DNA of 44,628 nucleotides, from contig DXJV01000069.1 of the NCBI GenBank assembly GCA_019056785.1, positions 1 through 44,628 on the forward strand. The letters are read 5' to 3'. Below the pieces are notes generated by a model. The model was not told where the DNA came from. It ran no database searches and worked only from the letters and a program-made list of their open reading frames with translations. This document shows positions 28,610 through 39,874 of the stretch, one piece after another. Source of the DNA: Candidatus Heimdallarchaeota archaeon. Its GTDB lineage: Archaea; Asgardarchaeota; Heimdallarchaeia; JABLTI01. Position 1 is the stretch's first letter, and every line of letters starts with the position of its first letter. A program made the translations under genes and the position numbers.

Positions 28610-29368
28610 TTAAATGCTTCCATTTTTTGTGCTTTCTTTATTGGTATCCTTAATAATAATGCCCCCTTTCTTTCCAATTTGATATTCTGTTCCTTTAAAC
28701 ATGCCAATAAATGCCATTAGATATTTTGGAAAGATTGCAAGGGAGATTCCGATTACAAAAAGGCCGGTGATAAAAGGATTGCTCATGTGTGTAAGAACCA
28801 TCCATGGAGGTGAGAATCGTAAGAAAAAGGCGATGGGTGTGCCAATGAAAATTGCCAGAAATTGCGATGGGCGAACATAACGTGTTAGTGCTAAAAATAC
28901 TACCATACTGAAAATGAAAATTAACAGCAAAAGGGGGTTGGTTAACACAAGAAAGCTAACCGTGACAGCGATCCCACGGCCACCTTGAAATTTAAGGAAA
29001 ATAGGATAATTATGGCCTAAAATAACTGCCATCGCTACAAAAATGTAGATAAGATTGTGTTTTGTTATTTCCCAATATTTGCCTGCACAGGCCAATGGTG
29101 TGTTATCAAATGGAATGGCAAGAACTGCAATAATAGTTGCTAAGCCTTTATAAAAGTCCAAGCCTCCTGCTAAAAGCCCCCAATTAAAACCACTTTTAAC
29201 CATAACATTTAAACCACCAACATTTCCAAGTCCAGTTTTTCGCAAATCTTCTCCAGTACGCCATTTAGCGATAATATACGAAAAAGGAATGGAACCAATA
29301 AAATATGCGATAATTGGACAAATAATTATCCATATCCAATGATCAATAGCTGCCATAGTTGTTATCAC
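28610..29368 (-). CDS. plsY: PlsY-family (glycerol-3-phosphate acyltransferase-like) membrane protein, divergent motifs
   Basis: YFIGSIPFS, DLRKTGLGNVGGLN, DFYKG, ILGHNYPIFLKFQGGRGIA, multiple TMs, terminal GTE. Confidence 0.8.
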   Translation of the reverse strand: MITTMAAIDHWIWIIICPIIAYFIGSIPFSYIIAKWRTGEDLRKTGLGNVGGLNVMVKSGFNWGLLAGGLDFYKGLATIIAVLAIPFDNTPLACAGKYWEITKHNLIYIFVAMAVILGHNYPIFLKFQGGRGIAVTVSFLVLTNPLLLLIFIFSMVVFLALTRYVRPSQFLAIFIGTPIAFFLRFSPPWMVLTHMSNPFITGLFVIGISLAIFPKYLMAFIGMFKGTEYQIGKKGGIIIKDTNKESTKNGSI

Positions 29369-29597: not shown

Positions 29598-31781
29598 TTG
29601 ATTAAAATGGCCAAGATATCTTTTGATAAAGTTAAAAAAAGTCTGAAAATTGATGATTTCCTTTCAGCTAAGAAATTCATCGAAACCATAGAACTAGAGT
29701 CTCTCTCTCCAAAAGAAAAAATATCCTGGTTATTATTGAAAGGGGAAATTCAACTTGGCCTTGGGCAGCTGGAAGAAGCACAGCAATTTGTGGAGGAAGC
29801 CCTAAAGAAGAGTGTTGATCTTAGTGCAACCGAGCAAATCGTTGATTCTTATATTTTAAAATTGAGGTTCATGAGCACTTTAGCTCGAGATGAAAAATTC
29901 CTTTTAATACTTAACGTTGCCGAACGAAGTTTAGGAGACATCTCGGAGAAAAGTTCCAAGGGATACTTGACACGAAAAGCTCACTTACAAGTCATCAAAG
30001 GAGGTTTTTTTGAGAAAAAAGGGAATTATGATGACGCTATGAGTCTTTATGAGTCAGCTTTACAAACATACAAAAAACTCAAACTTGATAAAGAGGTACT
30101 TTCAACACAATCGAAAATTGTGGGCGTTTTTAGTCGAAAAGGTGAATATGAAGCTGCGTTGTCTATTCTTTCTGAAATTTTGCCAAAAGCAAAGAAGCTG
30201 CCATTTAAGAGGGTTCTTATGAACATCTACAATCGGGCCGGTATAGTTAGTGTTAGAAACGGTCAAATCAATCAGGCTAAAGAATACTATGCTGCTGCCT
30301 TAGAGATTGCGTTAAAACTTGGGAATCAACGTTCTTGTGCAGGATTCCTTAACAACCTTGGGCTCGTTCATTTTCAGTTAGGGGATTATCATTCTGCAAT
30401 TGATTATTTCGAGAGATCATTGGCAAATCTAACGCCCCCACGAGATGACTTTTTAATTGCGATAATAAATTACAATCTTGCTATAATCTATCGCGAACAA
30501 GGAAAATTGGACAAATCGCTCGAAAAAATGTTGATTGGGCTAGAAGTTGCCCAAAAAGAAGGGAATATTACAAATATTATGGATTTTATGAACAGCATTG
30601 GTAAAGTTTATCACCTGAAAGGTGATTTTGACGAAGCCTTAAAATATCTACAATTAGCTTATCAAGTTCGAGACAAAAACCCAAACAAACTCTCCATTTC
30701 TAGAACAGTATACTATTTGATCAATCTCAGTATTGATTTAAACAAAATTGCTCTTGCAAAGGATTATTTTGCAGATTTAAAAAGGCTTGCTAAAAATGAA
30801 AAGAACTTGATCCTGCAACAAAGAACTCAAATTGCTGAAGCATTGCTTTTGAAACTCGAAACACGTTCTCGATATCGAGTACGAGCAGAAGAATTGTTTA
30901 ATGAAATCATTAATGGACCAATAATTGATAATGAATTATATGTAGATGCTTTGTTAAATCTAACAGAAATGCTTCTATTAGAGCTTAAAATGACCGGCAA
31001 CGAAGAATTACTCCAGGAAGTGAAGGAACTTACTACGAAGCTTTTGAAAATGGCTGAAAAGCAATCCTTATCTTCCTTGCTTGCCGAAGTTTATTGGCTT
31101 CAGTCCCAAATTGCTTTATTAGAGTCCGATATCCCCCGTTCACGACGTCTTTTAAGTCAAGCAGAAAGCATAGCTGCGGAACTAGGCTTTAAACGGCTTG
31201 GTTATCACATTGCTCAACAGCATGACCGGCTCTTAGATCAAATTGAAAGCTGGGAATTTTTAATGACACAAAATGCTCCTCTAATTGAGCGAATGGAAAC
31301 TATCAAGCTTGATGAATTTCTTTTAGAACTTTTCAAACGAAGGGCTTTCGACATTCCTCCTCTCCCGGCTGAGGAACCCATTATGTTACTCCTTCTCAAT
31401 GAGAGTGGGGCGCCCATTTTTTCGAAGAACTTCACAAGTGAAGAACGACGTATCGATGATGCCTTGATAAGCGGCTTTTTAACTGCAATAAATGCTTTCC
31501 TTTCTGAAACCCTCGAGTCGAAAGGGATCGTGGAACGAATTAAATATAATGAATATAATATGATCATCCAATCTTTTGATTCATTTATGCTTTGCTATAT
31601 TTTTATAGGGCAATCTTTTTCAGCGATGCAGCATGTCACCAACATTATTAATTTCATTAAAAAAGACGATGCTTTAAGGCAAAGCCTTCTGGAACAGTGC
31701 GAGTCAGCAAAACCTCTCAACCGGCAAAAAGAACTCCAACTTCAGAAAATTATCGATTCTGTTTTTCTTTCGCCCATATGA
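29598..31781 (+). CDS. TPR-repeat protein with a C-terminal longin-like domain
   Basis: Many TPRs (LNNLGLVHFQLGDYHSA, NSIGKVYHLKGDFDEA). C-terminus MLLLLNESGAPIFSKNF...LISGFLTAINAFLSE...IKYNEYNMII...MLCYIF has longin-like strand/helix order. Confidence 0.8.
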   Translation: MIKMAKISFDKVKKSLKIDDFLSAKKFIETIELESLSPKEKISWLLLKGEIQLGLGQLEEAQQFVEEALKKSVDLSATEQIVDSYILKLRFMSTLARDEKFLLILNVAERSLGDISEKSSKGYLTRKAHLQVIKGGFFEKKGNYDDAMSLYESALQTYKKLKLDKEVLSTQSKIVGVFSRKGEYEAALSILSEILPKAKKLPFKRVLMNIYNRAGIVSVRNGQINQAKEYYAAALEIALKLGNQRSCAGFLNNLGLVHFQLGDYHSAIDYFERSLANLTPPRDDFLIAIINYNLAIIYREQGKLDKSLEKMLIGLEVAQKEGNITNIMDFMNSIGKVYHLKGDFDEALKYLQLAYQVRDKNPNKLSISRTVYYLINLSIDLNKIALAKDYFADLKRLAKNEKNLILQQRTQIAEALLLKLETRSRYRVRAEELFNEIINGPIIDNELYVDALLNLTEMLLLELKMTGNEELLQEVKELTTKLLKMAEKQSLSSLLAEVYWLQSQIALLESDIPRSRRLLSQAESIAAELGFKRLGYHIAQQHDRLLDQIESWEFLMTQNAPLIERMETIKLDEFLLELFKRRAFDIPPLPAEEPIMLLLLNESGAPIFSKNFTSEERRIDDALISGFLTAINAFLSETLESKGIVERIKYNEYNMIIQSFDSFMLCYIFIGQSFSAMQHVTNIINFIKKDDALRQSLLEQCESAKPLNRQKELQLQKIIDSVFLSPI

Positions 31782-31958
31782 ACCCACTCCCTTGTGCTGC
31801 TTTTCTAATGACTTAATTGCTTCAATGACCCTTACGCTTTCTTTGCATGTTAAAGTATTCCTTTATATAGTTGAAGCTCAAATAGCTATTATAGGAAATT
31901 ACTCTAAATACGAAGAAGAGTTTTGCAAATTTTTAGATTGATTTTCTGGGTGCCAAAC

Positions 31959-32366
31959 ATGCATACGCAAGAAGAAAGCGAACGAAGTGGCTATATAAGA
32001 ATCACTGAGAATCACAACCTTTTATACTACAACCTTCCTAATAGTATCGTTGAAAAATTACGCTTATCAAAAAATGATTACCTAGAATACGATGTTCGTG
32101 GAGAGCACTTTTACATTCGGAAAAAAGGCAGTGAAAGTTTTCCAGAGATTAATGACAATCTTTTCCGTGGTTTACGTGTTGAACGGTCTATCACCCAGAA
32201 TAATACTCGCTTACGAACAAACCTCCCTAAAGAGGTAGCTCAATCATTATCTATACAAAAAGGTGATGTGCTTGAGTTTACTCTTACAGGCGAGGTGGTA
32301 ATTGGAAAGAAAAAGAATAAACTAACGAAAAACACTCAAAAAGAAATTCAGGAGAAAAAACCTTGA
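31959..32366 (+). CDS. Tandem AbrB/MazE/SpoVT-type DNA-binding protein
   Basis: Two copies of the swapped-hairpin motif: NLPNSIVEKLRLSKNDYLEY and NLPKEVAQSLSIQKGDVLEF. The stop overlaps the next start (TTGA, 32363-32366). ATG at 31959 preferred over TTG at 31923. Confidence 0.8.
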   Translation: MHTQEESERSGYIRITENHNLLYYNLPNSIVEKLRLSKNDYLEYDVRGEHFYIRKKGSESFPEINDNLFRGLRVERSITQNNTRLRTNLPKEVAQSLSIQKGDVLEFTLTGEVVIGKKKNKLTKNTQKEIQEKKP

Positions 32367-35062
32367 GAATAAGAGAAAAAATAATGGTGACTTTTATCAT
32401 TTTATTGATAATGCCACCTGTAATTATGATCTCTGTTTCAAGCATTAGGATTTCACGAATCTCGAAAAATAATGCAAGCGATTCTGCTGAAGCCTTACTA
32501 TCGGAAGAGTTGGAACATCTCCAAAGGCTAGCAACAGACGAGTCACAGAAGATCAATGAATTGTTCAGCCAAATCGTCGCAGAAGTGACGATGCTGGATA
32601 CTTTTGCTGAGCAATTGTTTAACGGTGAAATAGCCATTGAACCGTATCGTTCTTACTGGTGGGATGATGCTGCCGAATTGGCAGAAACCGGGCGGAGCAT
32701 ACCGGGGCAACATTATAATGCAACCTACGACTCAAACATTTCCTTTGATGTTAGTTGTTATTATATGCCCCGAGACAAAATTAGTAGTGCTCTTGGTGGA
32801 GATCCGTTTAACTGGACGCCTAAATTGGAATATTATCTGAACGTTTCGTCAAATCTTGATATAGCGTTTAAAAACATGCATCTCGCCAATCCAAACTACA
32901 TTTGGATTTATGCCGCCTTTGCCGACCCAACCTATTCGCTTTTTAGGAATTATCCTTATGATTCAATGGCTTGGACCCAAGAAGATGAAAATGGTAATCC
33001 AGTTTCCCCTGAAGATGATTGGGACCCACTCGAATATGATTGGTACACAAATGCTGCTAATATTGTAGATAACAGCACTGCGTTTACTTCACCATATTTT
33101 GATCCCATAGGTTTGATCATTTCTGTAGGGCGACCGGTACGTTATACTAATGGGACACTCATTGGTGTTGTTAGTGTTGACATTACCATTGAAACAATGC
33201 AACAGAGCATTCTTAATCTTGATGTAAGTAAGAATGGTTATGCATTCTTGGTTGATGAGAATGGTGACACTATTACTCATCCTGACTTGGTCAACGAATT
33301 TATTCCGATTATCGATTTAGAAATGACAGATGCATCTGCAACAGAACGAACAGCTTTTCAAGATATTATTAATGATATGCGCCTTGGTTTAACAGGACAA
33401 GAGAGCTTCACGAAGAACGGCGCCAAATGGTACATTTCTTATAGTCCAGTAAGCACTACAAAATATTCCCTTGCCTTAGTTGTTCCAGAAGATGACATTC
33501 TTGAGCCTGTTTACCAATTGCGAGATGACATTCTTAGAAGAAGCTTGAACAATGTTCTAGTTTCAATTGGTTTATTGGTTTTAGCCTTTATTTTCATTGT
33601 CGTTATTTCTGTGAACGTTTCGCGCCGAACGGTGAAACCAATTCAAGATTTCATCGACTTCTCAGAGCGCATTGCTAAAGGAGACTTGTCTACTGAACTT
33701 GATGAGGATAAAATTCTCCCAAGAGAAATTAAGGGATTGCATTCGGCTTTAGATGGACTCCTCACAGCACTGCGGTTTGGAAACACAGACTATTATGGAG
33801 GCAATCTAGATAGAGCATATAATAACTATCTTAAAGCCTTGAAACTGTTCGAAACAACCAACGATGAAGCCGGTATTGGTGTTTGTCTAAACAATCTTGG
33901 CAATGTCTACCGAGAGTGGGGTGACTTAAACCAAGCAAAGGATTTCTATGCAAAAGCTATTGTGGTTGCTGAAAAGCTTGGAGAACGTCCTTCTCTTGCT
34001 TCGCGCTATAATAACTACGGCTTAGTACTCCTTGATTCAGGAGATTATGAGGGCGCAAAAGACTATTTGGAAAAAGCTCTGGCAATAAATGAAGAGCTTA
34101 ACAGAGTTCGAGGGCGCGTTCTCTGTCTAAACAATCTCGGTCTTGTACACTTCAAATTAGGCAATGTGAAACTTGCCTTCAAGTATTATCAAGAAGCCCT
34201 CAAGTTGGCAAAAGATGACGACTTCCTTAGAGGTGTTGCGCACAGTCACTTGAATTTAGCAATGTTCTATCTTGAACAGTACGATGTTCCAAGTGCAAGG
34301 TCTCATCTAGAACAAGCATTAGAAAATGCGAAATTGGTTAACGATGTTTTGCTTGTCGAAGAGATACTCCAGCGCGCACAGATGATTGACCGTGATCTCG
34401 ATGACCATTCCACTCGAGAACAAATACAAACAATATTAGACCAGCTACGTGGTGGTACAGCTCCAAGAAAAACAGTACTCTATATTCTTGACTACAGCGG
34501 CTCAATGAGCGGCTCGCGTAATCGAGCATCTATTCGTGGCTCTCTCGACCTTTTGAAAACGGCTATCAAAGACAAAGACTCTGTTGGTATTATTACGTTC
34601 CATACAAGGAGTCAGGTTGTTTTACCCATTACTCCAGTTAAAAACCAGCGCACAAATATTACCAATACATTCAAAATGCTTAGTCGACCAAATGGCAATA
34701 CAGCCCTTTGGGATGCTGTTTATGATGGTATTGTGCAACTTGAGCAACTAGGTTCAGGCCAAAAATGGTTAGTCGTTTTAACTGATGGTGAAGACAACTC
34801 GAGTCAACGAACTTCTCGTGATGTGATTCGAAAACTCGAGAAGATGAAAGCCAAACCCAATCTTGTTGTTATAAGCGTTGGGGACATCGGTCAAGACGAA
34901 GCCGTTCTTATGAGCTTATGTGATGCAGTTGATGGAACGTTTATCAAGATCTCCGGAACAAGAAGTGTCCATAAGGAGATTGAGAAAGCGTTCAAAACAG
35001 TAGGACAATTAATGTCCCAGGCCCAGGTCTCAGTTGAAGGACTGGTGCTCGACGATCTATGA
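32363..35062 (+). CDS. Transmembrane receptor: TM-dCache-TM-HAMP-TPR-vWA (MIDAS)
   Basis: TM at about aa 7-26 and 397-417. Cache motifs DWY...FTSPYFD...GVVSVDI...GYAFLVDENG..ITHP. HAMP VKPIQDF...IAKGDLS...EI..L..ALD. TPRs CLNNLGNVY, YNNYGLV, CLNNLGLV. vWA LDYSGSMSG, GNTALWDA, VLTDGEDN. Confidence 0.88.
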   Translation: MRIREKIMVTFIILLIMPPVIMISVSSIRISRISKNNASDSAEALLSEELEHLQRLATDESQKINELFSQIVAEVTMLDTFAEQLFNGEIAIEPYRSYWWDDAAELAETGRSIPGQHYNATYDSNISFDVSCYYMPRDKISSALGGDPFNWTPKLEYYLNVSSNLDIAFKNMHLANPNYIWIYAAFADPTYSLFRNYPYDSMAWTQEDENGNPVSPEDDWDPLEYDWYTNAANIVDNSTAFTSPYFDPIGLIISVGRPVRYTNGTLIGVVSVDITIETMQQSILNLDVSKNGYAFLVDENGDTITHPDLVNEFIPIIDLEMTDASATERTAFQDIINDMRLGLTGQESFTKNGAKWYISYSPVSTTKYSLALVVPEDDILEPVYQLRDDILRRSLNNVLVSIGLLVLAFIFIVVISVNVSRRTVKPIQDFIDFSERIAKGDLSTELDEDKILPREIKGLHSALDGLLTALRFGNTDYYGGNLDRAYNNYLKALKLFETTNDEAGIGVCLNNLGNVYREWGDLNQAKDFYAKAIVVAEKLGERPSLASRYNNYGLVLLDSGDYEGAKDYLEKALAINEELNRVRGRVLCLNNLGLVHFKLGNVKLAFKYYQEALKLAKDDDFLRGVAHSHLNLAMFYLEQYDVPSARSHLEQALENAKLVNDVLLVEEILQRAQMIDRDLDDHSTREQIQTILDQLRGGTAPRKTVLYILDYSGSMSGSRNRASIRGSLDLLKTAIKDKDSVGIITFHTRSQVVLPITPVKNQRTNITNTFKMLSRPNGNTALWDAVYDGIVQLEQLGSGQKWLVVLTDGEDNSSQRTSRDVIRKLEKMKAKPNLVVISVGDIGQDEAVLMSLCDAVDGTFIKISGTRSVHKEIEKAFKTVGQLMSQAQVSVEGLVLDDL

Positions 35063-35074
35063 GGTGATGAACAA

Positions 35075-36541
35075 ATGGGACTGAAAAAATTCATACAAAG
35101 TAGAAGCATCAGAACCAATATCATGGTTAGTTTTGTGCTCCTCTCACTATTATTCATTGGTGGAACTGGCGGGTTATCTTATCTTTTGTTTAAGCGTGCC
35201 GGCCAGGAAACGATAAGCGATAGCACAAGTGCTCTTGAGAAGCAAATAACTGAAAATATCAAAATTACTGCGGAAAAGAATGCAGAAATCATCTTTCAAA
35301 AGCTCTCCAATGCAGAATCGATGGTTAGATATGAGGCTTCTAATTTAGAATACCTCTTCTCTGATGAGAACCGCTTTGGACCACGATATACTTACTATGA
35401 CTATTGGTTTGAATACAATCTCTCAAACACACCGGCAGATACACATTACGATCCTTCTTACGGCATTCAAGTGAGTTATGATTATGCCAGCTATTATTTT
35501 GAGGGTTCAAATTCAACTCACTATTTACCCCAGAATTCCTTACAGAACAAAACCCTCAACACTGTTGCTGCGATGGATTATGTTTTTAAGGAGATCCATA
35601 ACAATGCGCCTGAATTCCGCTGGCTCTATATTGCCTTCGAATTGGCTGGTATCGATTTGTTCATCAATTACCCCGGTAGTGTTCTCTTGGGTGATGATGC
35701 AGAACGAAACAACGAACCTTATGAACCACATTTGGAGCCGTGGTATATAGATGTCAAAAGCGGTGACGGCCGGATTGTTTTCACCGAGCCTTATTTTGAC
35801 GAATTTGATGGTGTGCCCCTGATAACAATTGGTCGCGTGGCAAAATTCAGCAACGGTACAGATATTGGGGTGATTTGTGGCGACATCTCCATTGAAGACA
35901 TGGTGAATAAAATTGTTAATATCACTATCTTAGAGACAGGTTATGCCGCACTCATTAATTCCGATGGCTTGGTGGTTGCTCATCCAGAGTCTGCGCCGTC
36001 AATTGCTGACCCTAACTTCCCCTATATAAATGAAGTGGAAGTGAATTCAGACGACACATCAGCTCTCAATGCAACAGCGCTTTCCTTGATAACCTCTGGT
36101 GGTTCGGGGATTATTAAATACACCCGCAACGGCCAGGAACGATTCCTCGCTTATCAACCTGTAGGAAAAGGCGACTACATTAGCTTAATTATCCTCCCGG
36201 TCGATGAAGCGTTGGCCGGAATTGAACCAGTAGTCACAAGAATGAACAATGGTATTCGCACAAACCAAAACACCATTTGGATAATTGTTGCATCCAGTTT
36301 TGTAATAGGTATCACTGTAGGGCTAATTTTGACTGCATATATTACACGACCATTTACGCATCTTATTCAAGTGGCACGCTCGTTATCCACAAGGCGCGCA
36401 AGGAAAGACATAGAGCAAGGCTTGATGATGAAGATCGACCAACGGCTTTTAGAGAGCAACGACGAACTTGGCGAACTTACGAGAGCCTTTAAAGGCATGT
36501 TAGAATCGGTACAAGAAGCCGAACGGGAGAAAAACCATTAA
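35075..36541 (+). CDS. TM-dCache-TM-HAMP protein with no output domain
   Basis: Two TMs. PWY...FTEPYFD...GVICGDI...GYAALINSDGLVVAHP. HAMP ITRPFTHL...NDELGELTRAFKGM, then stop. GAGGTGA SD overlaps the previous stop. Confidence 0.88.
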   Translation: MGLKKFIQSRSIRTNIMVSFVLLSLLFIGGTGGLSYLLFKRAGQETISDSTSALEKQITENIKITAEKNAEIIFQKLSNAESMVRYEASNLEYLFSDENRFGPRYTYYDYWFEYNLSNTPADTHYDPSYGIQVSYDYASYYFEGSNSTHYLPQNSLQNKTLNTVAAMDYVFKEIHNNAPEFRWLYIAFELAGIDLFINYPGSVLLGDDAERNNEPYEPHLEPWYIDVKSGDGRIVFTEPYFDEFDGVPLITIGRVAKFSNGTDIGVICGDISIEDMVNKIVNITILETGYAALINSDGLVVAHPESAPSIADPNFPYINEVEVNSDDTSALNATALSLITSGGSGIIKYTRNGQERFLAYQPVGKGDYISLIILPVDEALAGIEPVVTRMNNGIRTNQNTIWIIVASSFVIGITVGLILTAYITRPFTHLIQVARSLSTRRARKDIEQGLMMKIDQRLLESNDELGELTRAFKGMLESVQEAEREKNH

Positions 36542-36576
36542 AACCTTCTCCCCTTTATTTTTCTTGGAGAAAAAGT

Positions 36577-38373
36577 ATGACTTGGACAATAGCAGATAGT
36601 AAGCTTGTTTATGGTGTTAATCAAAAGGACCTTTCCCACCTAGATATTTCTTCTAATGGAAAACTCGAATTAGTTATTGATGGAAAGAAAATCACTTTTG
36701 AGGAAATTGTTCGTCATTTTTGTACGACAACGAAGTATCAGGATTGTTCTTTTGCAATCCGTCTTCCACAATTAATTGTGAGTCAGATCAAGAAATTATT
36801 TACTTCTTTTAGAGTTGCCCGTGAAAAATATTCTTATAAAGGCAGCTACCATCCCATCTACCCAATTAAAGTGAACCATTCCAAATTCATAATCGATACG
36901 ATTCGAAAAGCTCACCCCAATTATGCCTTTGAATCGGGCACAAAATCAGAATTTATTCTGTTAAAAGAAGTCTTGAAAGATGAGAAGCATCGTTTAATTA
37001 TGTGTAATGGCAATAAAGACCATGAGTTCCTTGAAGAGATGAAAATTGCAATACGGGAAGGGTATACAATTTGCCTTTCAATAGAATCGGTGCAGGAATT
37101 AAAAGACACGTTAACAATTTTACCTCGCAAGGGTTTTCAACTTGCATTTCGCATTAAACCTTATGTATCCTTACATGGCCATTGGGGGACCTCTAGTAGT
37201 CGACATTCGAAGTTTGGACTTGCTATTGGCGAACTTGTTGAAGTGATGAATCTGCTTAAAGAGAGAAAGGCAACTTCACTTTTGACAACCCTTCATGCCC
37301 ACCCCGGTTCACAAATCACGAGTCTCCATGACATCGAAAATTACGCCCATTTCATGGCAACTGTTTTTCGTCTATTGCATGAGAATGGTCTTACAAACTT
37401 GCGAGCTATTAATTTCGGGGGTGGCTTGCCTATTGATTATGATAATCGTCTTGATAGCCTTTTTATGAAAAAATATGCTGATATTTTGGTAAAGGTTCTT
37501 GCCCAAGAATTACCTGCATTGCAACCTGAACTTTTAACTGAATCAGGGCGAGCTATTACAGCACTTTCTACAATTGTGGTTGTAAAAACAATAGACAGGT
37601 ATGCTGTCTTTCCTGAAAGTGCCATTGACGAACAACTTAAGAACCATTTTTGGTCAAAAGCGAAAACATTACTTCATGCGAAAAGTTCGAAAGAAGTTCT
37701 TGCTAACTGGCAGCAATGGGAAGACAGCCAATTGGTTTTGGACTCACTCCAACATTTGCATGATTTTGAGCATGTCACTCTTCTGTTAAAACGAAAGCTA
37801 CGCGAAGAATTCTTTCAACATAATGATTATCTCGAGTATCTTAATACTCCCGCAGCTAAGAGTTTGTTGAAACCTGAATATACTGTCCAAGGGAATTTTT
37901 CTATTTTTAATTCAATCTGTGATCTGGTTCTTGTAAGTCAGTATTTCCCGGTGATCCCGCTAAACAATTTACACCTTCAGCCGGAAACTCTTGTGAGACT
38001 TTTTGATATAACCTGCGATTCAGATGGTGTGGTAGATGTTTACAATGCCCCTGTGTCTGAGAAAAAGCTGGCAACAAAGGATCATTTTCAATTAACTTTC
38101 CCTAAAGAGTTAACCCTTGGAGGTATACCTGTCGGAAAAAAAGATGAGTTAATCGATAGCTATTTTGTTATTCCTCTTGCCGGAGCTTATCAAGATATTA
38201 TTGAATTTGATCATAACCTTCTTGGCGATTTACCCGATGTGCTTGTCACAGCCAGAACTGATTGGCAAATAACATTACTAACTGGTGCAGAATCAATTGG
38301 CGATATTTTGGAGGATCTGGGTTATCATTTTCCAAATAGTAACGATCCCTATTTTGATAATGGCGGGAAATAA
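36577..38373 (+). CDS. speA: Biosynthetic arginine decarboxylase-like (PLP fold type III)
   Basis: YPIKVN (PLP Lys), ESGTKSE, CNGNKD, SKFGL, HAHPGSQI, GGGLPIDYD, TESGRAITA, NFSIF.S..D, DITCDSDG, GAYQDI...HNLLG. Confidence 0.85.
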   Translation: MTWTIADSKLVYGVNQKDLSHLDISSNGKLELVIDGKKITFEEIVRHFCTTTKYQDCSFAIRLPQLIVSQIKKLFTSFRVAREKYSYKGSYHPIYPIKVNHSKFIIDTIRKAHPNYAFESGTKSEFILLKEVLKDEKHRLIMCNGNKDHEFLEEMKIAIREGYTICLSIESVQELKDTLTILPRKGFQLAFRIKPYVSLHGHWGTSSSRHSKFGLAIGELVEVMNLLKERKATSLLTTLHAHPGSQITSLHDIENYAHFMATVFRLLHENGLTNLRAINFGGGLPIDYDNRLDSLFMKKYADILVKVLAQELPALQPELLTESGRAITALSTIVVVKTIDRYAVFPESAIDEQLKNHFWSKAKTLLHAKSSKEVLANWQQWEDSQLVLDSLQHLHDFEHVTLLLKRKLREEFFQHNDYLEYLNTPAAKSLLKPEYTVQGNFSIFNSICDLVLVSQYFPVIPLNNLHLQPETLVRLFDITCDSDGVVDVYNAPVSEKKLATKDHFQLTFPKELTLGGIPVGKKDELIDSYFVIPLAGAYQDIIEFDHNLLGDLPDVLVTARTDWQITLLTGAESIGDILEDLGYHFPNSNDPYFDNGGK

Positions 38374-38491: not shown

Positions 38492-39874
38492 TTGGCTCAT
38501 GATCAACCTTTATTTCAAAAAGTTGGAAACAAAATTTATTTCGATGGGCAAGATTTGACATTGCTCGTTTCCGAGAAAGTAAAAACACCTGTCTATCTTT
38601 TTAGCGAAAGGGAACTCCACCGTAATATAGATCGACTGCAAAATGCGTTTAGAAAAAATTATCCTAATGTTTCGATAGCCTATTCAATGAAGAATAACAG
38701 CCTTCCGGAAATTGTTAGTATCATTGCCCAACGACTCGAGTCATTTGAAATAAATTCTTTGAAGGAACTACAAATTCTCGAGATGCTTGCGAAAAAAAAC
38801 GGTTCAAAATTCCACCCTATCACAACAACACTTTACAAGCCACCAGAATTTATTGCAAAAATGATTTCCAGCGAATTTTTCAGTGAACCTCTTTTTGCTA
38901 TTGATTCTTTTCAAGATTTCCGAATAGTAAAGAAGGTTGCAGAGCAATTTAAAAAGCGGGTTAACGTTCTTGTTCGTGTAAATCCCGGGCTCGAGACTTC
39001 TTCCCGTGATGCAGTGTTTGCTTCTGCTGGGCTTAATTCGAAATGTGGCTTGCCAATTGGCACCATTGCTTCTTTAATGGAAATGAATAAAACCTCACTT
39101 ACAAACACAATTTTAACTGAACCTCCTGTTGAACAAACAAAAGAAACTGCTGAATATATAATCCAAGAAATTAGCAAAAGTAACTGGCTAAACTTGCAGG
39201 GACTTCATTTTCATACCGGAAGTCAAATAACTGATTTAGATTATTTTAACAATGTTTACGAAATTGCTGCACTCTTTTACAAATGGGTGAAAAACGAATT
39301 CGCAACGGAACTTACGATTCTAGACCTCGGAGGTGGCTATCCTGTACAATACTCACCAGCAGATAAGGTTCCTTCTTTGGATGCCATTGCAAATTGTCTC
39401 AGCACGCATTTGAAGAAGCATGCTATCGCCCCAGAAGTCATCCTCGAAAGTGGGCGATATATTACTGCAAGTGCCGGGATATTATTAACGACAGTCAAAT
39501 TAATAAAACAACTTCTAACTGGGCAGAGACTTGCTGTGTTGGACTTCTCTGTTTACAGCGACTTGTTGGATACGCTCACTGCAAAGTGGTTTTATCAACC
39601 GATTCTCGTGAATAACCTTCCCCAAGAAACGCAAACTAATCCTGGGATCTGTTATGAGCTTGTGGGTTGCACAAACGATGTTTTGGATCGTTTGCCCTCT
39701 TATCTTGATACATCAAGTAGTAGTTTTTCTGAAAATATCAATGGGCATTGTTTTCCTCGAGAGCTAAAGGAAGGAGATTTAATCGCCATTAAAAATGCAG
39801 GTGCTTATACTACTTGTTTCAATTCTGAGTATAGTGGTAAACCTATCTCAGCGAAATTTATTCTTAAAAAATGA
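38492..39874 (+). CDS. Fold-type III PLP decarboxylase (LysA/ODC-like), substrate unknown
   Basis: TPVYLF, YSMKNN (PLP Lys), VRVNPG, HFHTGSQI, DLGGGYP, LESGRYI, NAGAYT. GGAG lies 8 nt before the TTG start. Confidence 0.85.
   Translation: MAHDQPLFQKVGNKIYFDGQDLTLLVSEKVKTPVYLFSERELHRNIDRLQNAFRKNYPNVSIAYSMKNNSLPEIVSIIAQRLESFEINSLKELQILEMLAKKNGSKFHPITTTLYKPPEFIAKMISSEFFSEPLFAIDSFQDFRIVKKVAEQFKKRVNVLVRVNPGLETSSRDAVFASAGLNSKCGLPIGTIASLMEMNKTSLTNTILTEPPVEQTKETAEYIIQEISKSNWLNLQGLHFHTGSQITDLDYFNNVYEIAALFYKWVKNEFATELTILDLGGGYPVQYSPADKVPSLDAIANCLSTHLKKHAIAPEVILESGRYITASAGILLTTVKLIKQLLTGQRLAVLDFSVYSDLLDTLTAKWFYQPILVNNLPQETQTNPGICYELVGCTNDVLDRLPSYLDTSSSSFSENINGHCFPRELKEGDLIAIKNAGAYTTCFNSEYSGKPISAKFILKK

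Follow-up and report, generated by a model that had tools for sequence, protein, structure and literature searches.

A putative enzyme-free Cache-HAMP receptor pair with TPR and MIDAS-vWA docking modules in Asgard archaea

To our knowledge, almost all known prokaryotic transmembrane (TM) sensors end in an enzyme or in a chemotaxis signalling domain. The closest described relatives of the locus reported here are the bacterial dCache_1-HAMP receptors (PctA, PctB, PctC, Mlp24, Mlp37, McpU and TlpQ) and Cache histidine kinases (Methanosarcina; PDB 3LI8 and 3LIB), which share one front end of TM helix, double Cache, TM helix and HAMP. We analyzed a 44,628-nucleotide stretch of DNA from a Candidatus Heimdallarchaeota archaeon (the window), which lies on contig 94 of a Heimdall-type Asgard metagenome-assembled genome (2.87 Mb, 82.5% complete) and in which four same-strand open reading frames follow a 177-bp spacer: gene 1, gene 2, gene 3, and a speA-like gene. 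Genes 2 and 3 both carry the front end described above and have the W/Y, Y, and D pocket positions in common with the bacterial receptors, but neither of them has an MCP, kinase, cyclase, or PP2C domain; gene 2 continues into TPRs plus a vWA domain, and gene 3 into nothing (HEAT repeats in one lineage). The locus also differs from the bacterial receptors in that two different subunits are encoded side by side and the carboxylate-binding Arg of the pocket is gone. The core idea of a kinase-free, two-paralogue Cache/HAMP receptor with TPR/MIDAS output (MIDAS, metal-ion-dependent adhesion site) is supported by comparative evidence, and how it may work we infer from sequence comparison.

Other known systems resemble the locus in part. 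In alpha2delta and CACHD1, Cache and MIDAS-vWA domains occur in one protein, as in gene 2, and among PDB sequences CACHD1 ranks second for the gene 2 Cache (E 1.9e-11; alpha2delta-1, E 2e-6). However, the vWA and Cache domains of alpha2delta are all extracellular and interleaved, whereas the gene 2 vWA is cytoplasmic and comes after TM2, HAMP, and the TPRs. A special relationship to alpha2delta was therefore rejected: the topology is not the same, bacterial dCache_1 sensors give matches of equal quality, and the resemblance is one common to the whole dCache_1 family. The Bat proteins (BatA, BatB, BatC) and MoxR-vWA pairs are prokaryotic membrane-anchored vWA/TPR combinations of poorly known function, but the Bat proteins are without Cache or HAMP, the NCBIfam matches to them are far below cut-offs, and no MoxR ATPase was found in the seven loci annotated here. 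The proposed logic, in which a membrane sensor acts on a soluble regulator or on an amine-forming decarboxylase pathway by direct protein contact without phosphotransfer, is like that of Mlc-PtsG, where Mlc is held by PtsG, and of CadC-LysP, which controls lysine decarboxylase genes; this is an analogy only, and the proteins are unrelated. What sets the present pair apart is that it is conserved across much of Asgard and ends only in docking modules (TPR, MIDAS-vWA, and HEAT in one lineage), so if it signals, it would do so purely via regulated protein-protein contacts, a logic typical of eukaryotic receptors and hardly explored in archaea.

The two receptor genes contain the following features (window positions, + for the forward strand).

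32363-35062 (+): gene 2, 899-aa receptor, about 110 full-length relatives with the same Pfam set
32381-32437 (+): gene 2 TM1, hydrophobic helix
about 32465-33547 (+): gene 2 extracellular dCache, Pfam dCache_1 match at residues 202-371
33554-33610 (+): gene 2 TM2, hydrophobic helix
33617-33772 (+): gene 2 HAMP-like helix-loop-helix, residues 419-470, with AlphaFold2 (AF2) helices 419-438 and 454-478
33773-34459 (+): gene 2 TPR array, residues 471-699, 11-12 helices, Pfam TPR_12 E 1e-27
34469-35020 (+): gene 2 vWA, residues 703-886, Pfam VWA, VWA_2, and VWA_3
34490-34504, 34700-34702, and 34784-34786 (+): gene 2 MIDAS, D710/S712/S714, T780, and D808, respectively, from alignments A1 and A2
35075-36541 (+): gene 3, 488-aa sensor with a short acidic tail, dCache_1 E 4e-20
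35120-35176 (+): gene 3 TM1, hydrophobic helix
35594-36178 (+): gene 3 dCache, Pfam match
36275-36331 (+): gene 3 TM2, hydrophobic helix
36329-36517 (+): gene 3 HAMP, Pfam 24.1 bits against a cut-off of 25

A Pfam search of gene 2 matched many TPR families over residues 466-660 and VWA over residues 707-862. The MIDAS residues D710, S712, S714, T780, and D808 showed no variation among 29 to 34 relatives with identities as low as 24%, also in the Cache-less forms described below and whichever neighbor gene was present. The segment after TM2 gave no Pfam HAMP match of its own; 18 of the 34 aligned relatives did match PF00672 (HAMP), with a best E of 1.9e-9, the canonical HAMP Pro (P426) and Glu (E455) were invariant among the relatives, and AF2 predicted a helix-loop-helix, so HAMP in gene 2 is supported at the family level. 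The AF2 model of the gene 2 region had a confidence (pLDDT) of 81, mostly above 85 in the TPR part, and the vWA was modeled as a Rossmann-like alpha/beta fold. Foldseek with the cytoplasmic model, in which the vWA was not queried alone, returned TPR proteins only, the best being the peptide-binding TPRs of LGN/Pins, kinesin light chain, and OGT, while the nearest solved sequences to the gene 2 vWA were the vWA domains of CLCA1 and ITIH4. A previous sequence-only reading of the window had described gene 2 as a chemoreceptor-like front end followed by TPRs and a vWA with complete MIDAS, and the Pfam matches, alignments, and AF2 model confirmed this description.

To place the arm relative to the membrane, exactly two hydrophobic helices per Cache protein were found in all orthologues of genes 2 and 3 examined, TM1 is preceded and TM2 followed by K/R-rich flanks, and the density of N-x-S/T sequons in the Cache region is about threefold that of the TPR-vWA part. 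These features mean that the TPR-vWA arm is cytoplasmic, with the vWA inside the cell and not outside, as the sequence-only reading needed. The absence of enzymatic output that it had reported was also borne out, since Pfam and NCBIfam detected no HisKA/HATPase, MCPsignal, GGDEF/EAL, cyclase, or PP2C domain in gene 2, gene 3, or about 230 relatives.

Gene 3 shares 29% identity with the N-terminal half of gene 2 (E 1e-38) and its C-terminus lies about 10 residues past HAMP, which agrees with its earlier description as a paralogous sensor stopping right after HAMP. Its HAMP score is given above; most gene 3 orthologues exceed the threshold, and the canonical D-E-[IL]-G-x-L motif is present. The length of gene 3 was 477-497 aa in about 100 orthologues, its 3' end and stop codon were kept in the contigs of four independent metagenome runs, and one metagenome run gave a single gap-free contig across genes 2 and 3. 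The constant length and the stop in four assemblies therefore exclude a truncation or an assembly artefact, which had been raised as a concern. One lineage has a longer gene 3 orthologue, of 640-670 aa, with HEAT/Armadillo repeats at its C-terminus (L012:296-2290, L013:11210-12958; P0151-P0158), which by their domain type are a second protein-docking output.

The family was searched for among 5.8 billion proteins, and about 110 full-length gene 2 relatives with the Cache, TPR, and VWA set were found at 30-99% identity. The named ones were labeled Heimdall, Hod, Kari, Thor, Loki, Odin, Hermod, or Sigyn, and the next matches were unrelated TPR proteins. When only the TPR-vWA part was used as query, each match spanning the whole part had Cache and/or HAMP and the named ones were Asgard-labeled, with one “Zixibacteria” bin (70% identical) as the sole non-Asgard label; other non-Asgard matches covered the TPR part only. 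No full-length relative with a eukaryotic label turned up in either search; ten divergent representatives proved to be unnamed proteins from metagenomes, two contigs inspected for them were compact and prokaryote-like, and a protein atlas contains unnamed Cache+VWA_4 clusters of 1145 aa. Gene 2 was present in 122 of 400 Asgard genomes and in 36 of 85 genera. Judged from these matches, the gene 2/gene 3 pair is an Asgard-restricted family. Its members are annotated just as “tetratricopeptide repeat protein” or “cache domain-containing protein”, and our literature search for the Cache-HAMP-TPR-vWA architecture found no description of it, in keeping with the earlier suggestion that it was new.

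To analyze the neighborhood, seven loci with gene/Pfam tables were used together with 40 further loci, which were scanned with hidden Markov models built from those seven. Of the 39 informative loci, drawn from genomes of the Heimdall, Hod, Thor, Loki, and Hermod types, 38 have gene 3 immediately 3' of gene 2 in the same orientation, with gaps of 12-20 bp or overlaps, although orthologues between lineages are just 24-35% identical. In the exception, gene 2 has an in-frame stop and a gene 3/SpeA pair is found elsewhere in the genome. At this locus (L036:8432-13235, genome G368) the stop is a TAA and the gene 3/SpeA pair lies about 185 kb away, which decay, rearrangement, or a sequencing error may explain. 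In four genomes (L026-L029) the Cache was lost from both proteins, and TM, short loop, TM, and HAMP were kept (575 aa and 150 aa). This joint loss argues that gene 2 and gene 3 work as one receptor, and by sequence they very probably act together. The synteny, the joint Cache loss, and the HEAT variant argue that the pair is one functional unit with protein docking as its output.

Two of the loci have further peculiarities. In L026:8254-10442 the Cache-less pair is followed by a propeller protein of about 610 aa. A complete Heimdall-type genome contains a second, divergent gene 2/gene 3 pair (L016:6766-11086) with neither SpeA nor propeller nearby, and the gene 3-like protein of this second pair (544 aa) ends in Cys-rich, zinc-ribbon-like motifs.

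The sequence-only reading had taken the unit to be an AbrB gene (gene 1) plus two receptors. The gene 2/gene 3 order stood, but the AbrB-like gene turned out to be confined to the genus of the window, and the conserved neighbors, SpeA and a propeller protein, had been overlooked. The decarboxylase features in the window are listed here.

36577-38373 (+): SpeA-type arginine decarboxylase (fold III, pyridoxal phosphate (PLP)), NF003763 E 1.6e-90, next gene after the pair
36868-36870 (+): PLP-binding Lys98 of SpeA, from alignment with C. jejuni and E. coli SpeA
38341-38370 (+): SpeA C-terminal tail, residues 589-598, with acidic D-P-Y-F motif, candidate docking peptide
38492-39874 (+): second fold-III PLP decarboxylase, LysA/ODC-like, 460 aa, Pfam Orn_Arg_deC_N and Orn_DAP_Arg_deC

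The SpeA score (304.5) is below the NF003763 equivalog cut-off (369), so it is a divergent member. It has the family signature of PLP Lys, H-x-H-x-GSQ, GGG, E-S-G-R, and catalytic C-D-S-D-G, and the residues K98, H242/S245, GGG281-283, E322/R325, CDSDG480-484, and Y538 were invariant in 22 linked orthologues; by these residues it is predicted to be a catalytically intact arginine decarboxylase. A SpeA-like gene adjoins the pair in all Heimdall-, Hod-, and Thor-type loci (divergently transcribed in two), and Asgard SpeA-like genes are almost confined to receptor-bearing lineages. The tail is conserved as well: of the 29 SpeA proteins linked to a receptor, 25 have [DE]-x-P-Y-[MFVI] at their end, which is D-P-Y-F at residues 590-593 here, P591 and Y592 are at least 90% conserved among linked SpeA, and in one Hod-type SpeA group another conserved sequence forms the tail. 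In six gene 2-less genomes, the SpeA-like proteins are about 30 residues shorter at this end. The second decarboxylase is kept downstream in the window's genus only (L001, L008-L011), and all its NCBIfam matches are below cut-offs.

In Hod-, Thor-, and Loki-type loci the pair is adjoined by a gene for a soluble beta-propeller protein (380-620 aa) whose ends resemble a Zn-ribbon or a winged helix. The genome of the window, which is 82.5% complete, gave just weak repeat-level matches to it, and an unannotated 428-aa gene upstream in L001 has no counterpart in that genome. In a propeller-less lineage, a gene for a 115-aa protein with a weak RING-finger-like match (L020:11262-11606, minus strand, E 6e-5) lies directly upstream of gene 2, in the slot of the AbrB or propeller gene elsewhere. 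A histone-deacetylase-family gene (PF00850, E 6e-75) flanks Thor, Hermod, and Loki-labeled loci (L003:3343-4422, L005, L006, and most Thor loci) and is divergently transcribed from the propeller gene; from its family it is possibly an acetylpolyamine amidohydrolase.

For the ligand, both Cache domains were aligned to PctB and Mlp24 with HMMER, and the pocket residues were tallied over the loci at the positions shared with the amino-acid motif only. The dCache_1AA motif was taken from PctA (Y121, R126, W128, Y129, Y144, D173). The best PDB sequence matches of both Cache domains are bacterial dCache_1 sensors (PctA/B/C, Mlp24/37) and the archaeal kinase sensor, at E 1e-11 to 1e-14. Both pockets keep the aromatic W/Y and Y positions and the amino-binding Asp. 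At the position of the carboxylate-binding Arg (R126), gene 2 has Tyr, gene 3 has Glu, and the relatives of both mostly have Glu or Asp, so with this replacement genes 2 and 3 fall outside the dCache_1AA amino-acid-sensor motif. The dCache_1 domains of McpU and TlpQ bind agmatine and polyamines with nM to uM affinity (PMC6234866), and amine sensors derive from amino-acid sensors (10.1101/2023.04.06.535858). The AM motif of Cerna-Vargas et al. (2023) includes an upstream insertion with an Arg-Asp pair, and the sole archaeal phylum reported for it is Halobacteriota (10.1101/2023.04.06.535858). We infer that the ligand may be a cationic amine, such as agmatine or a polyamine, and the adjacent intact SpeA, the second PLP decarboxylase, and the deacetylase-family gene beside Thor loci fit such a ligand.

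Taken as a whole, our reading is that genes 2 and 3 form an Asgard-specific, enzyme-free TM receptor that senses an amine, docks soluble partners, and is linked to agmatine synthesis or expression, and we consider it about evenly balanced between right and wrong. Agmatine or a polyamine would be bound outside by the dCache_1 domains, the signal would pass through TM2 into a mixed gene 2/gene 3 HAMP bundle, and the change in HAMP would alter the accessibility of the gene 2 docking arm, which consists of an LGN-like TPR groove and the MIDAS vWA. The arm would then bind soluble partners. Here the best candidate is SpeA, putatively co-transcribed, which would bind via its acidic D-P-Y C-terminal tail; the tandem-AbrB protein of gene 1 is possibly a further partner in this genus, and the beta-propeller/Zn-ribbon/winged-helix protein would be the partner in other lineages. 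The amount of amine outside the cell would thereby be coupled, without a kinase, to agmatine synthesis and/or gene expression. In a typical MIDAS contact the ligand is an acidic side chain contributed by the partner. Other candidate docking ligands are the propeller protein, the AbrB protein of this genus, and the short acidic tail of gene 3.

A specific form of this reading, which we put forward tentatively and hold to be rather unlikely, is that amine binding to the heteromeric receptor exposes or hides a site of TPR groove plus MIDAS that clamps the D-P-Y tail of SpeA (elsewhere the propeller), so that polyamine synthesis would be switched by reversible membrane docking and would involve neither phosphotransfer nor a second messenger. 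If this were true, a prokaryotic surface receptor would directly gate a metabolic enzyme, and a eukaryote-style scaffolded receptor complex would have arisen in the archaeal lineage closest to eukaryotes. In either form, the SpeA linkage and the altered pockets give a concrete ligand hypothesis, and the SpeA tail gives a concrete docking hypothesis.

Several observations weigh against the amine-receptor reading. In the window, the Arg position of the gene 2 pocket is occupied by Tyr, which is not acidic, the Arg itself is retained in a few orthologues, and only two pocket positions and the gene neighborhood point to a cationic amine as ligand. In three near-complete Thor genomes a SpeA-like match runs over the full length (to residue 584-594) and gene 2 was not detected, so the link between tail and receptor is imperfect. 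The Loki-type lineages (f19, f20, f21) have the pair with invariant MIDAS and no SpeA-like gene anywhere; in the Loki-type families with pair and propeller, SpeA-like genes were found in 0 of 14, 0 of 135, and 0 of 4 genomes. As a universal ligand of the MIDAS or TPRs, SpeA is therefore ruled out. Moreover, related genomes in all these counts are not independent samples.

Another explanation, to which we give a low probability, is that the pair is a static membrane scaffold or anchor for SpeA, the propeller, or other clients, for example beside a transporter, with the Cache domains serving in assembly or surface contacts. The cytoplasmic domains are docking modules only, the MIDAS is invariant regardless of the neighbor, and the Cache-less forms keep TM-HAMP-TPR-vWA and the same partners, which means that the arm works without an outside sensor. 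However, HAMP, a signal converter, is retained in both proteins in all lineages, the pocket residues W/Y, Y, and D are conserved as expected of a ligand site, and two distinct Cache paralogues are maintained across the phylum.

The sequence-only reading had suggested that the TPR/MIDAS arm possibly captures or releases the AbrB regulator encoded by gene 1. As a model for this genus only, which we regard as doubtful, gene 1 would encode a DNA-binding regulator that the arm captures at the membrane and releases on ligand binding, much as PtsG sequesters Mlc. The features of gene 1 are the following.

31959-32366 (+): gene 1, 135-aa tandem SpoVT/AbrB-like protein, Pfam MazE_antitoxin E 2.4e-9
about 31986-32126 and 32166-32315 (+): two beta-beta-alpha-beta-beta units of gene 1, from the sequence repeat and AF2 secondary structure

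That gene 1 belongs to the AbrB family was verified by its MazE_antitoxin match (AbrB clan), which at 37.4 bits is above the cut-off of 24.7, and its second unit matched the TIGR01439 AbrB domain (E 1e-5). Its closest known counterparts are MraZ and the AbrB/SpoVT/MazE swapped-hairpin proteins. The capture model is favored by the DNA-binding character of the clan, by the 4-bp overlap of gene 1 with gene 2 and the same order throughout the genus, and by the position of gene 1 in the slot that is occupied elsewhere by the gene for the propeller protein with Zn-ribbon or winged-helix-like ends. Two AbrB units in a single chain are also known from MraZ, but a Foldseek search with the gene 1 model found nothing at E <= 0.001, and its MraZ match (prob 0.87, E 0.12) is weak and not significant; the model itself is of low confidence (pLDDT 61). 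Three genomes of the genus have gene 1 homologues at 53-55% identity immediately 5' of gene 2, and the gene is found in the window, L001 (= L008), L009, and L010 and is absent from the loci of all other lineages. It therefore cannot be the general output or a core part, and by its distribution it appears as a late, local addition, a genus-specific accessory. The capture model is compatible with the amine-receptor reading and not exclusive of it. A MazEF-type toxin-antitoxin module was also considered for gene 1 and rejected: in contrast to MazE it has no toxin partner, its neighbors being the TPR protein upstream and gene 2 downstream, and no toxin family was matched.

It is very improbable that genes 2 and 3 are independent homodimeric sensors, adjacent through tandem duplication, with gene 3 signaling to an unlinked partner. 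They are paralogues at 29% identity and Cache-HAMP receptors are normally homodimers, but the conserved order and adjacency despite the divergence of the orthologues, the short gaps or overlaps, the loss of Cache from both together, and the lack of an output of its own in gene 3 in most lineages all speak for a pair. The last explanation, a chaperone or metal-insertion system of the vWA with a MoxR-type AAA+ ATPase (cf. RavA-ViaA, CbbQ-CbbO, Bat operon) and SpeA as client, is hardly credible, since, although many cytoplasmic prokaryotic MIDAS-vWA proteins pair with MoxR ATPases and weak NCBIfam matches to cobaltochelatase, BatA, and BatC exist, these BatA, BatC, and chelatase matches are far below cut-offs and the AAA+ partner suggested earlier did not appear, with no MoxR, AAA_3, or AAA_5 gene in the seven Pfam-annotated loci (AAA+ genes were looked for in these seven and not in the 40 further ones).

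Re-reading of the junctions bore out the tight coupling of the three genes that had been described. The gene 2 start TTG at 32363 overlaps the gene 1 stop TGA (32364-32366), with AGGAG 9 nt upstream, and gene 2 orthologues align at the N-terminus from this TTG onward. The gene 2 stop (35060-35062) is overlapped by GAGGTGA, which is followed by a 12-bp gap to the gene 3 ATG at 35075. The gap from gene 3 to speA is 35 bp, with GGAG before 36577. Upstream of gene 1 there is one further element.

31863-31870 (+): TATA-box-like TTTATATA, inside the 177-bp spacer (31782-31958) 5' of gene 1, read from the sequence

This TTTATATA is possibly the operon promoter. The spacer between gene 3 and speA (36539-36576) contains a T-rich CTTTATTTTTC, which may act as a weak terminator or else as an internal TATA-like element, and a variant strain has two 1-bp insertions within this spacer.

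Directly upstream of the spacer 5' of gene 1, a gene at 29598-31781 (+) encodes a 727-aa TPR protein whose C-terminal ~130 residues are faintly longin-like (Fuz_longin_1, E 0.06). We considered this protein as a part of the system and dropped it, because it is not kept beside the pair in L001 or elsewhere. Further upstream on the minus strand, 28610-29368 encodes a PlsY-type glycerol-3-phosphate acyltransferase (PF02660, E 3.5e-33), which is a bacterial-type ester-lipid gene in an Asgard genome.

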